Positions 34,187 through 41,308 are shown, counted from the first letter of the stretch. The stretch is DNA of 64,000 nucleotides from Octopus vulgaris (GCA_951406725.2 OX597830.1:25482001-25546000); one strand, 5' to 3'. The notes: generated by a model not told the origin, from the sequence alone. Made by a program: numbers and translations.

Positions 34187-34980
34187 TTTACTCTTTTACT
34201 TGTTTCAGTCATTTGACTACGGCCATGCTGGAGTACCGCCTTTAGTCGAACAACTCGACCCCAGGACTTATTCTTTATAAGCCTAGCACTTATTCTATCG
34301 GTGTCTTTTGCCGAACTGCTAAGGTACGGGGACGTAAACACACCAACATCTGTTGTCAAGCGATGGTGGAGGGAAAACACAGACACCCAAATACATACAT
34401 ACGTATATATATACGTATGTATGTATGTATTTGGGTGTCTGTGTTTTCCCTCCACCATCGCTTGACAACCGATGTTGGTGTGTTTACGTCCCCGTAACTT
34501 ATATATATATATATATTTATATATATGAGTAATGTTAAGACAACAAAAGAATGAATGAGGTCACGATAATATGTAAATAGAGGAATTTATCTGTAATATA
34601 ATATGTGACAATTATTCGGTTGCCATAATAAGACTCCGAGTTTCGGATGTCGGGGCGGAAACCTGCTTCAGCATCTCGTCAGTTATCGAGGCAATAAAAA
34701 AATGGTATTTGATTGCCTCGATAACTGACGAGATGTTGGAGCAGGTTTCCGCCACGATATCCGAAATTCGGAGTCTTATTATGACAACCGAATTTTCACA
34801 GATTATATTACACACACACACATATATATATGACGGGCTGCTTTCAGTTTCCGTCTACCAAATCCATTCACAAGATTATGGTCGGCCCGAGGCTATAACA
34901 GGAGACACTTGCCCAAGGTGCTACGCAGTGGGACTGAACTCGGGACCATGTGGTTGGGAAGCAAGTTTCTTACCACACAG
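34187..34980 (-). mobile_element. SINE family B split by an HHR-hairpin insertion and an inverted duplication
   Basis: Tail at 34187-34400, head at 34830-34980. Confidence 0.8.
34527..34811. mobile_element. Foldback element made of two divergent hammerhead motifs
   Basis: HHR(+) 34720-34780 gataa-CTGACGA-gatgttg..cgatatc-c-GAAA-ttcggag-TC-ttatt, mirrored at 34627-34687(-). Confidence 0.8.
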
Positions 34981-35857: not shown

Positions 35858-36218
35858 GTGTGATAAATGTGTGTCTTATATTTACGTGGAGTGGTGGGGT
35901 TAAAAATATTTACACTGCTAATAATGTTCTTGGAGCTTGTGTGTGTTTGCGATATCAGTCTCTCCGCTTTGCAGAACATTTTTCTCTGTATTACTGATAT
36001 ATTAAACCAAGGTTTAATATGTATGTACGTACGTATGAATGTAATTACCATATATATATATATATATATGACAACATAACGTGACAGTCCCGTAAGGGAA
36101 TTACACCACTGCTGTTTAACCCTTGGAAGCATCGACGCTTCCTGTCGGACTTGACACATTTCCTGTGTCCTTATATTTGCGAAGGGGAGGCAAGCACCCC
36201 CACCAGCTAGGATTCACA

Positions 36219-36265
36219 CCTGAGAACATGCATGTTTCTGGGTCTGTACCCGTCATCAGCCCAGG
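36219..36265 (-). ncRNA. Type I hammerhead ribozyme motif (left terminus)
   Basis: Reverse complement cctggg-CTGATGA-cgggt acag accca-GAAA-catgcatg-TT-ctcagg. Confidence 0.88.
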
Positions 36266-36467
36266 ATAGTGAACCTGCTAGTTAAAATCTTTATTATAGG
36301 CACAATGGCCCGAATGAAGAGGGGACATTAAAATACAATACAGGACATGGGGTACATATAACAAAAATACAGAAAGGATGATATGAAATGAAATATTAGT
36401 AATGAATTAAAGGAAATGGCTTACGAGCCCCCCAAAGCTCGCAGTTTCATTTACAATTACAATTGTA

Positions 36468-37150
36468 CTATCTGGGGTGTTCGTCAGTAATGTAAACGAG
36501 TAATTCATCCTGTTCTATAACGCCGGGCAAACTATCATATCGAACATAGTGCGCTATGCACACAGCTGTATTTGTAAACAAATTTATTAATTTATTTACC
36601 GTCTCTTCATCCACAATTGCAGCCTTTATTTGGTTATCGCATATCCTCGGGTTCAATTTCACTCTCCTTAGATTTTTCATTATCGCTAATGTTTTCTCAA
36701 TTTCTTTATCCTTTTTGTACAACATTACAGCTTTGAGATTTCTTTCTTTTGGTCTTCCTCCTTCCTTCCTTACATGTTTTCAGACATTCTTCCACTTTTG
36801 TTGACCATTCTTTCGTTTCATCCCACGTTGAACCTTCACTCACTTTAGTTGCTGTATCTCTCCCTTCGTACGTTCGATCCTCTGTCTCGTCGGCAGACTT
36901 CTTTTTAGCTTTTTTTGGTCTTTGGGTGGTGATTCCACCCGTGTTCGCTTTCTATCCTCTTTTTCTTCTGTTCTTTCCTTTTCTTTCTCCTTCACTAACT
37001 CGTCGCCACTTTCCACATTATCTGTTGTCACGATTTCCTCTTCCGCTTGCAATTCCACATTCTCCTTTTTTAACTCCTCTGTCAAAGCCTCCATTCCTTC
37101 CTCCAGTGTTATCGTCTTCTCTTGTATTTCTCTTTGAGGACACACATCCT
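36468..37150 (-). pseudogene. 3' half of the ORF1-like gene (acidic/basic linker plus C-terminal domain), frameshifted
   Basis: ORFs 36840-37145 and 36468-36725; starts in sequence identical to the + arm just after the zinc knuckle. Confidence 0.7.
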
Positions 37151-38047
37151 GGCTGCAAACGAATTACAGTTGGAAGAAATAATTGTCGAGAAGGAAAATT
37201 TGAGGAAATACTACGACAGCTTCAAGAAGGAAGGGGACTGTCTGAGAGTTACACTACCTGAAGACGAAGTGAAAGAAGCGGCGAAAAAAATCATAACATA
37301 CAGAACATGGAATGTGGTCTCAAAGAAAATAGAAGTAGCAGAGGTGGAAGAGATTGAGAAATGTCTACAAGAAATAAAAGGAACAACTACCTTCTACAAT
37401 AGAGGTAGAAAATACGCTACAGTAGACGTTCGTTTTGAAAATGAAGACGAAGCGAAGAAGAACGCAATGACAGTGTTGAGATCGGAAAAATGGGTTCTAC
37501 TTCCTAGTTATTGTTGAAAAAGAGCAGTGAGGATAAGAATAAGCAAGATCCCACCGGAACTTGATACCGAAAGAATAGTAGCTGCAATAATCTACAACTG
37601 CAAAGAGAGCGTGGACATTCTTAGGGTGGAGAAGTCGAAAGAAATAAACTGGTGGGGTTATGCGGTGCAAGCTTCAGTCCACATAACCATGCCAGATTTG
37701 TATAACATCCCGGAGGAGTTGGTGTTCACCGACGAGACACGACTGAGTGTCGTGGTGGAGGGGAGACCTCCAGTGTGTTATAAATGTAAGAGCAGAGGGC
37801 ACATGAAGGATGTGTGTCCTCAAAGAGAAATACAAGAGAAGACGATAACACTGGAGGAAGGAATGGAGGCTTTGACAGAGGAGTTAGAAAAGGAGAATGT
37901 GGAATTGCAAGCGGAAGAGGAAATCGTGACAACAGATAATGTGGAAAGTGGCGACGAGTTAGTGAAGGAGAAAGAAAAGGAAAGAACAGAAAAAAAGAGG
38001 ATAGAAAGCGAACACGGGTGGAATCACCACCCAAAGACCAAAAAAAG
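37151..38047 (+). pseudogene. LINE ORF1/Gag-like nucleic-acid-binding protein with CCHC zinc knuckle (one in-frame stop)
   Basis: ORFs 37122-37517 and 37527-38108 are in the same frame, split by TGA; GRPPVCYKCKSRGHMKDVC = CX2CX4HX4C; RRM-like stretches upstream (inferred). Confidence 0.8.
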
Positions 38048-38098
38048 AAAAAAAACTAAAAAAACTATAATAAAGATTTTAACTAGCAGGTTCACAAT

Positions 38099-38145
38099 CC
38101 TGGGCTGATGACGGGTAAAGACCCAGAAACATGCATGTTCTCAGG
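38099..38145 (+). ncRNA. Type I hammerhead ribozyme motif (right terminus)
   Basis: cctggg-CTGATGA-cgggt aaag accca-GAAA-catgcatg-TT-ctcagg; stem I extends by ttcaca/tgtgaa. Confidence 0.9.
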
Positions 38146-38388
38146 TGTGAATCCTAGCTGGTGGGGGTGCTTGACTCCCCTTCGCAAATATAAGGACACA
38201 GGAAATGTGTCAAGTCCGACAGGAAGCGTCGATGCTTCCAAGGGCTAAACAGCGGTGATGTAATTCCCTTACGGGACTGTCACGTTATGTTGACAGTATA
38301 CAACCACTCTATCGCGCTCCACCACCGCTCATGTCTCTTTGAGACATTTAGAAATTCAATATTTCTAATTATATATATGACCTTATCC

Positions 38389-40384: not shown

Positions 40385-41308
40385 TAGTTTTATTTTTATA
40401 GCGTGCTTTCACTTCACTACCGAGCGCAGCTCTGTGTGCCTTGGGTATGTGCTGTGATTTGTTGTGATGCTCTGATGGTTATTGTATGGAAAGTGTTCTG
40501 CGTAGGATGTGTGCAGTGCCTAGTAGTGCAATTTTCTGTATGTTATATGTGTTTGTAAGTCCTGGTGTTTTTGTTATGTATTTGTCTGAATCTAATTTAT
40601 TAGGGTTCATTGCTGTATCCAAGTCTATATCTCTATTATTTTCCTTCCATATTTTATATGTATGTGTTGTTGTATTTTCATTTTTTGGGTAGAGCATTGC
40701 TGTGAAGTATGCGTGTAAGATAGAAATGTATTCCTCACGTGTCCATTTACGTCTTTTGGGTTTTATTTGCGGGACATGAGGTACAACGTCCGGCCCATTA
40801 TTTTGACGGTCGTCATTTTCGTAGGGTACCGGTCCGTTTATTTCTGTTGTCACATTATTTCGCACGTGTAGTTTTTCGTACATTTTTTGTTGTAAGTTTA
40901 ATGTACGTACCGCTCGATTGTTATTCTTGGGTTGAATAGTATCGGTGGCATTTAATTTCTTCGTAGTTCCTTTGTACATGGTGTTTGAGGTCGGGGATGA
41001 TCGTGATGTTCCACGCATGTTTACATGTGTTGTGTTAGAGGTGGAGATAATATCGAGTCAAAATACATCATTTCGTTTCGAAAATAGTAATAAATTTCAA
41101 TTAGTATTACTTACTCGGATACAGTCCAATTCTTTGTTAGTAAATCTTTGGCTCCATAGGATGTCCTTGTTTTCGATGTTTGTGGATAGATTTCGGAGCT
41201 CTGTATTTTCCTTCTTACATCTTAAACGTCCCCGGTGTTCTCTCTTAAACGTCCCCGGTGTTCTCCCTCTTAAACGTCCCCGGTGTTCTCCTCTTAAACG
41301 TCTCCGGT

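Follow-up and report, generated by a model that had tools for sequence, protein, structure and literature searches.

An octopus locus read as two broken, inverted copies of an ORF1-only half-LINE within a separate hammerhead repeat, with likely copying in trans by an L1/Tx1-group LINE and likely insertion at a start site

What kind of mobile DNA encodes a single zinc-knuckle protein, has no reverse transcriptase (RT) of its own and lies between two outward-facing hammerhead ribozymes? Such an arrangement is present in the window, the 64,000-nucleotide stretch of Octopus vulgaris DNA analysed here (G000:C17:25482001-25546000, in a 2.8-Gb genome). A first-pass annotation had taken the hammerhead-bearing termini as the ends of the element itself and proposed that it is mobilised by Penelope-type elements. 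Our analysis leads with good, though not full, confidence to a different reading. Two copies of a half-LINE that encodes ORF1 alone lie here, broken and inverted, within a separate hammerhead repeat; the half-LINE was likely copied in trans by a LINE of the L1/Tx1 group and was likely inserted at a start site.

The features of the locus are listed in Table 1. The inverted arms (36069-36299 and 38065-38295) are 231 nt long and 97% complementary, close to the ~230 bp first described, and a second inverted pair, at 98%, is found at 36902-37150 and 37807-38054. The left end lies in (TA)n and the interior encodes only the CX2CX4HX4C protein, with no RT or endonuclease inside, as had been described. 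The right boundary had been drawn at 38295; it actually continues to ~38371, 76 nt further. Each arm includes the ORF unit's 3′ end together with downstream host sequence, the tail is present on one side only and TA runs are found at both ends. In the left arm, on the minus strand, the ORF stops near 36468, AATAAA is located at 36295-36290 and the unit ends 6 nt later; the reading frame of the right arm is interrupted by a stop codon at 37515-37517. The right host copy spans from the usual insertion site to the TA run, and breaks off immediately short of the promoter-like motif that the 352-nt monomer carries. Neither the upstream host nor a target-site duplication is present. The copy at this locus is dead, with its two arms, both 5′-truncated, placed back to back. 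The first-pass annotation had seen one copy plus a 5′-truncated inverted copy; the inverted Penelope-type layout stands, but neither arm is complete at its 5′ end. Twin-priming inversion was considered and rejected, because both arms include the 3′ end.

Table 1. Features of the locus, in window coordinates
Feature	Position	Strand	Remarks
(TA)n run, left junction	36050..36068	.	sequence
Host hammerhead repeat family A (retrozyme-like), left copy, without the 76-nt tail	36069..36283	-	
Type I hammerhead, extended stem I	36203..36282	-	cut predicted between 36225 and 36224, mirrored from right arm
ORF1-only unit, 3′ half	36284..37150	-	frameshifted C-terminal ORF and 3′ UTR
3-nt microhomology, inversion junction between arms	37148..37150	.	
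ORF1-only unit, 5′-truncated, start codon lost; ORF codons ~14-318	37151..38062	+	
Zinc knuckle CX2CX4HX4C	37776..37817	+	
Internal-deletion junction, ~600 nt gone (counterpart kept in left arm, 36901-36300)	38055..38065	+	
ORF1-only unit 3′ end: AATAAA 38069-38074 plus 6 nt	38065..38080	+	
Host hammerhead repeat family A, right copy with tail	38081..38371	+	
Type I hammerhead, extended stem I, GUU triplet	38082..38161	+	cut predicted after 38139

The hammerhead was identified manually and through covariation; Rfam searches of the whole window and of the local region yielded no hammerhead. In the right arm, CUGAUGA (38105-38111) and GAAA (38126-38129) accompany a GGGU/ACCC stem II and a palindromic stem III, and the fold of the arm has a z of -3.2. 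Stems I and II covary over 18 related motifs, with double changes in 11 of the 14 predicted pairs; these 18 are a subset of 55, spread over families and picked partly for pairing, and the counts lean high. Among the 55 motifs, taken from fetched loci, the core reads CUGANGA in 40, CCGANGA in 13 and UUGACGA in 2, and 45 carry a GUC triplet against 10 with GUU, which the window copy has. An intact core had been assigned to each arm. A type I hammerhead with a palindromic stem III is indeed there, but its core has a C.A at 10.1-11.1. This mismatch occurs in 32/55 motifs and is typical of the family; it caused a strict hammerhead finder to overlook most copies.

The sequence around the ribozyme is a repeat in its own right. 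Searches with the terminus gave 2,225 first-look genome candidates (candidates, not copy numbers), and the top matches are mostly a circularly permuted non-coding monomer without the ORF. The period of the repeat is 352 nt (L025). Twenty stand-alone host loci consist of monomers, partial dimers and inversions only, with an inverted partner in seven. A non-coding monomer of ~350 nt with a type I hammerhead fits a retrozyme-like repeat. Non-LTR retrozymes have been described as non-coding, Penelope-derived repeats with type I hammerheads (10.64898/2026.07.22.740005; PMC7229834), and the octopus host resembles them and the pseudo-LTRs of Penelope elements in its length of ~350 nt, lack of coding sequence, type I hammerhead and inverted insertions. 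In contrast to retrozymes as those sources describe them, the repeat here is a target, and an occasional carrier, of a protein-coding unit.

That unit has boundaries of its own. It is 1.6-1.9 kb long, with a short 5′ UTR, one ORF of ~460 aa (complete in the natural copy P0001) and a 3′ UTR that ends ~6 nt past AATAAA, mostly without poly(A); a few array copies have A runs. The termini do not belong to one element: the ORF unit contributes the innermost 16 nt of each, its 3′ end, and the remainder is the host repeat. The units are flanked by duplications, mostly of 11-22 bp, whose sequence varies with the host (49 copies). Among 148 units from three ORF1-only families, 107 have a duplication score of at least 9, compared with 2/148 after shuffling; 39 of the 107 are internal to arrays. 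Of 29 copies closely related to that in the window, 13 run at their 3′ end into repeat A, 3 into repeat B, 1 into another unit and 5 into other DNA (three of them without any hammerhead host), with 7 unresolved. One 5′-truncated copy (L073) retains the upstream host and the duplication, and there are arrays with no hammerhead between the units (L068/L079). The own 3′ end, the duplications, the several unrelated hosts and the hammerhead-free arrays argue that the hammerhead is not the tag of the unit, as it had been thought to be. We conclude with high confidence that the ORF is an ORF1-only LINE derivative within a separate hammerhead repeat.

The ORF is multicopy and conserved. Its pieces gave 238 and 267 first-look genome candidates (again not copy numbers), and 98 scored genome matches, many of them stop-free, have 44-69% identity; only the best 40-150 candidates of a search were scored. 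The only near-length database homologue is an Octopus bimaculoides protein (52% over half its length), and a profile search gave 488 representatives at E <= 1e-10. In an ORF1 tree of 26 rows, whose deep nodes are unsure (long branches), hosts change repeatedly and the protein from the other octopus nests inside the lineage. Pairwise dN/dS among 18 intact natural copies, with saturated or close pairs and two edited copies excluded, has a median of 0.115 over the first 238 codons (106 pairs) and is 0.31 for the C-terminus. The lack of an RT, noted in the first-pass annotation, is confirmed, and the unit is multicopy and under strong purifying selection. A second ORF1-only family forms an array of ~13 mostly stop-free units with a period of ~1.76 kb (G000:C2:138770720-138793249, L224-L231), and a third family is also present.

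The structure predicted for the P0001 ORF has a mean pLDDT of 72.8. It comprises an RRM-like domain at 50-135 (best Z 8.4, rmsd 2.6, 76 aligned), a second RRM-like domain at ~136-217 (Z <= 7.0) and the knuckle; its middle is disordered, and the C-terminal domain is folded. A PDB sequence search with the protein matched only the knuckle, and in the Atlas it neighbours CCHC and ZCCHC3-like clusters. The fold hits listed include no L1 ORF1p structure, which is not evidence for a different fold.

The first-pass annotation had also considered that full-length copies might turn out to be ordinary L1/Tx1 or DIRS elements with an ORF2. They are not ordinary L1/Tx1 elements: none of 84 ORF ends is followed by an endonuclease (EN) or RT within 1.4 kb, whereas 19/19 LINE ORF1s, used as a control, have EN/RT next. 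DIRS elements carry an RT and a tyrosine recombinase, and neither was found. In two copies, L149:4322-5683 and L150:4276-5625 (minus), nearly all differences from the nearest relatives are sense-strand A>G changes (165/173 and 160/202). These are favoured after A/U and before G and rare after G, an ADAR-like neighbour bias. The two copies are likely hyper-edited RNAs fixed in DNA through reverse transcription, which would point to an RNA intermediate.

A candidate source of the missing RT is found in arrays shared with the units. Head-to-tail arrays mix ORF1-only units with 5.5-kb LINEs that have a CCHC-containing ORF1 and an ORF2 with APE, RT and zf-RVT domains. The LINE ORF1 aligns with P0001 without gaps over 209 aa (29%, E 5e-36), and LINE and unit share a 3′ format: a short TGTCC-like motif, then AATAAA, then the end 6 nt later. 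A LINE with a 3′ UTR nearly identical to that of the window subfamily was not found among the candidates scored, and there is no named reference among the 120 hits listed for the LINE RT. Its domains and behaviour suggest that the LINE belongs to the Tx1 group. ORF1-only derivatives of LINEs are known, namely HAL1 (PMC5753468) and HeT-A (PMC5537684). The octopus unit and LINE likely form a partnership of this kind, in which the unit is likely copied in trans by the LINE. The probable partner is thus an APE-RT LINE of the L1/Tx1 group and not a Penelope element, for which the unit had been suggested as a possible helper.

These data bear on the proposal that the unit is moved by Penelope-type elements, with the hammerhead repeats as its own ends and a captured gag-like gene serving as the helper of a bipartite element. 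It would account for the 13/29 close copies with host A downstream, most of which also have host A upstream, and for the Penelope-type inversions that take in unit sequence; a Chlamys element that combines a hammerhead with a zf-CCHC ORF upstream is known (PMC8557442). However, the unit has its own duplications, occurs in hammerhead-free hosts and arrays and leaves truncated copies in intact hosts; its ORF is homologous to that of a LINE and shares arrays with it; and no Penelope partner emerged in the single family tested. As the primary mechanism this model is largely refuted, and we regard it as very improbable. Chlamys-2_cBra and Athena/Terminon are hammerhead-ended retroelements with an extra upstream ORF, which contains zf-CCHC in Chlamys-2_cBra (PMC8557442); these elements, as described there, have their own RT, unlike the octopus ORF, which is a separate insert with its own ends.

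A more limited role for Penelope-type machinery is somewhat favoured by the layout: at this locus it may have inserted a read-through composite RNA. The locus has an inverted 5′-truncated partner, a tail at one end and a TA-rich target, the layout described for Penelope insertions (PMC8557442). Among 30 loci, inverted arms containing unit sequence are found at the window locus, L063 and L082. Alternatively, the inversion could have arisen at the DNA level, by fold-back duplication and deletion once an ordinary insertion had taken place, without Penelope machinery. The 3-nt microhomology, the internal deletion and the 97-98% likeness of the arms are compatible with such an event, but the upstream host and duplication are missing and the tail is at one end only. 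The same layout, as drawn for Penelope insertions (PMC8557442), also recurs at L063, at L082 and in 7/20 stand-alone hosts. We therefore consider the fold-back origin unlikely.

No telomerase-related RT, with or without GIY-YIG, is encoded at the locus, nor does the locus sequence contain the Athena/Terminon features looked for (a telomeric repeat stretch beside the hammerhead, and RT). The hammerhead repeats do not act as pseudo-LTRs at the element's own ends, the unit having its own ends and other hosts. One abundant Penelope family was tested as partner and, among the matches listed, has only microsatellites in common with the hosts. This family (L241-L270), very young, with RT and GIY-YIG and presumably Neptune-like, has at least 150 scored matches at 94-100% identity among 11,613 candidates, and no hammerhead pattern occurs in the eight 3′ stretches examined. 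Penelope fragments near L125, L142 and L122 have no clear link to the unit.

Where do the unit and its partner insert? Of 30 LINE loci, 19 have hammerhead repeat B as their 3′ flank and 4 have U2 snRNA; 5 continue into the next member of an array, 1 into other DNA, and 1 is unresolved. The U2 insertions have a 17-bp duplication that begins at -3, in two types of U2 gene with unrelated upstream DNA. The U2 clusters with 5.5-kb LINEs at -3, one of them tandem, are L301-L305 (C3, C23). The motif HCAGTV is found at -56 to -58 in 15/15 U1 genes and at -58/-59 in 7/8 U2 genes. Measured from the edge of the duplication, it lies at -54/-55 in 12/12 host-anchored LINEs, although the duplication of L305 is not clean and two of the C3 copies may be duplicates. 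Among 25 ORF1 units in hammerhead hosts, the motif is at -54 to -59 in 13 and at -63 to -67 in 8 (shuffle chance 0.03). At the U1/U2 position it occurs in 0/15 U6 upstream regions, many of which may belong to pseudogenes. HCAGTV is probably a PSE-like element. An snRNA-type promoter is known in newt satellite 2 (cited in PMC2220036), which the octopus hammerhead repeat would resemble in having an snRNA-type upstream motif.

Hosts without HCAGTV mostly have a TATA-like motif ~30 nt upstream, and two have CCAAT further up. A loose TATA-like motif is located at -45 to -24 in 35/45 units and 6/9 host clusters (null mean 0.66), and a strict TATAWAW in 13/45 units and 3/9 clusters; both the loose motif and HCAGTV were picked after inspection of the data. 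The other 3/9 clusters have no TATA-like motif in this interval, and some copies lie in microsatellite or plain DNA (L059, L069, L078). One TATA host is, we assume, Helitron-like, and its TATA may therefore not be a promoter. The hosts are related and composites may have moved together, and the counts are therefore not of independent insertions. An LTR-like repeat also hosts ORF1 units, ~30 nt downstream of its TATA box (L130, L149, L150, L157), with a Gypsy-type pol next in L130. One host was considered as a Naiad end and rejected, as its sequence starts like an LTR and continues into a Gypsy-type pol.

Relatives of the unit thus lie at fixed short distances below promoter-like signals, suggesting that the unit likely borrows host promoters. 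Some copies carry relics of an earlier host at their 5′ end: U1 +1 to ~+20 on L059, and a relic of repeat B on U2-inserted LINEs. Relics of the first bases of a host are what transcription from the host start site would predict, with template switching as an alternative; U1/U2 heads on Tx1 elements can arise through template switching to snRNA (PMC4494074). When the genome was searched for the pattern of a 3′ end directly abutting U1 +1, a single match came up, as many as with the reversed-pattern control. This match is a 5′-truncated LINE ending at +1 of a variant U1 gene in a U1 cluster (L352:5296), with no upstream promoter or duplication. Four contig sets of presumed RNA cover both parts, and their joints skip ~1.7 kb, as empty hosts would; such contigs carry no information on starts, strand or expression.

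Start-site-directed insertion with promoter borrowing is the reading towards which we lean on these positional data. The same half-LINE and LINE could instead be guided by an ordinary endonuclease preference for short pyrimidine-A motifs, aided by pairing of read-through RNA with the target, and the match to start sites would then be a by-product of which copies are transcribed. The targets of one LINE family do have TY-ATC-like starts in common and subfamilies favour particular hosts, and in Tx1 the target choice is reported to be mainly determined by the endonuclease and can be strengthened by co-transcription (PMC4494074). On the other hand, U2 genes, hammerhead repeats, an LTR and other hosts share little more than 4-5 nt at the site, the distance to the upstream motif is constant to 1 nt in 12/12 LINE cases, and both U2 gene types, with unrelated upstream DNA, are entered at -3. 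Plain endonuclease preference is thus the less probable explanation, though a serious one.

Start-site-directed insertion can be extended, tentatively, to a wider picture that we hold at somewhat less than even odds. An L1/Tx1-group LINE, together with a number of ancient ORF1-only partners kept by selection, would constitute a promoter-homing system without a promoter of its own, which recognises Pol II initiation sites of snRNA and TATA type, nicks at ~+1, hops between U2 genes, hammerhead retrozymes and LTRs, and sometimes rides Penelope machinery as a third layer of parasitism. In the proposed mechanism, the promoter-less unit would be transcribed from the host promoter, and its RNA would carry the duplicated host bases at the 5′ end. 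The ORF1 protein would package its own RNA, which would use the LINE ORF2 for target-primed reverse transcription. The nick would be placed by something bound or open at the start site rather than by a single long DNA sequence, and arrays would grow by repeated insertion at the regenerated site. When the host is a hammerhead repeat, a host-unit-host read-through RNA could be taken up by Penelope-type machinery. At this locus the outcome would be two 5′-truncated arms back to back, with a one-ended tail, a TA-rich target and no duplication.

Like the octopus unit, HAL1 of mammals is non-autonomous, encodes ORF1 only and has LINE-type duplications (PMC5753468). The octopus unit differs in that it does not derive from mammalian L1 and forms several old lineages, ~26-32% alike mutually and to the partner ORF1. 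L1 carries a poly(A) tail. Unlike HAL1, the octopus unit usually lacks poly(A), uses fixed sites and builds arrays. HeT-A of Drosophila, with TART/TAHRE, is likewise a Gag-only element in head-to-tail arrays beside RT-bearing partners, and takes its promoter from upstream sequence (PMC5537684). The octopus unit, however, is non-telomeric and enters internal sites with duplications, and its promoter likely comes from unrelated hosts.

The Tx1 clade offers close parallels to the targeting. Its elements are known to target other repeats and to form tandems (PMC4494074), and Tx1L, Keno and Tx1-Mar with SINEU are, like the octopus partner, APE-RT LINEs that enter other repeats and U2 genes (PMC4494074; PMC4640811). 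There too, tandems arise by repeated insertion and non-autonomous partners are moved, and transcription from flanking DNA has been suggested for Tx1 (PMC4494074). The flanks of Keno and Utopia begin at U2 nt 39 (PMC4640811), while the octopus LINE is at U2 -3. The octopus system further differs from the Tx1 clade in that a single system enters unrelated hosts at one promoter-relative register and in that its partners encode a conserved ORF1.

Each part of the system has a precedent. The combination, and above all a promoter-relative register over unrelated hosts, was not found in the full-text literature searched (excluding Repbase, subscription journals and supplements). Nor did any paper listed there describe Tx1 partners with ORF1 alone in cephalopods, or Tx1 insertion directed to start sites. 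The terms hammerhead, ORF1 and HAL1 are absent from the main text of a paper on octopus repeats (PMC13282606), whose repeat library may contain the families under other labels. If correct, start-site-directed insertion would mean that the target of a non-LTR retrotransposon is set by transcription initiation, over unrelated Pol II promoters, and not by DNA sequence. It would also explain, in a form that can be tested, how Tx1 partners without a promoter come to be transcribed; for SINEU this has been named as an open question (PMC4494074). It would bear on why selection keeps ORF1-only elements, for targeting or for packaging as with HeT-A Gag. Furthermore, snRNA-type promoters would extend to animal retrozymes beyond newts, and insertions would mark repeat start sites genome-wide. 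Should the targeting prove to be plain sequence preference, this would still be a new invertebrate HAL1/HeT-A-like system nested in retrozymes.

Other features of the window lie on both sides of the locus. Near-perfect hairpins are found at 34320-34501 (91-nt arms) and 34614-34793 (86-nt arms). On the minus strand, 40479-41057 contains a 192-aa frame that has no Pfam hit and whose end presumably resembles the C-terminus of a restriction-like-endonuclease LINE.
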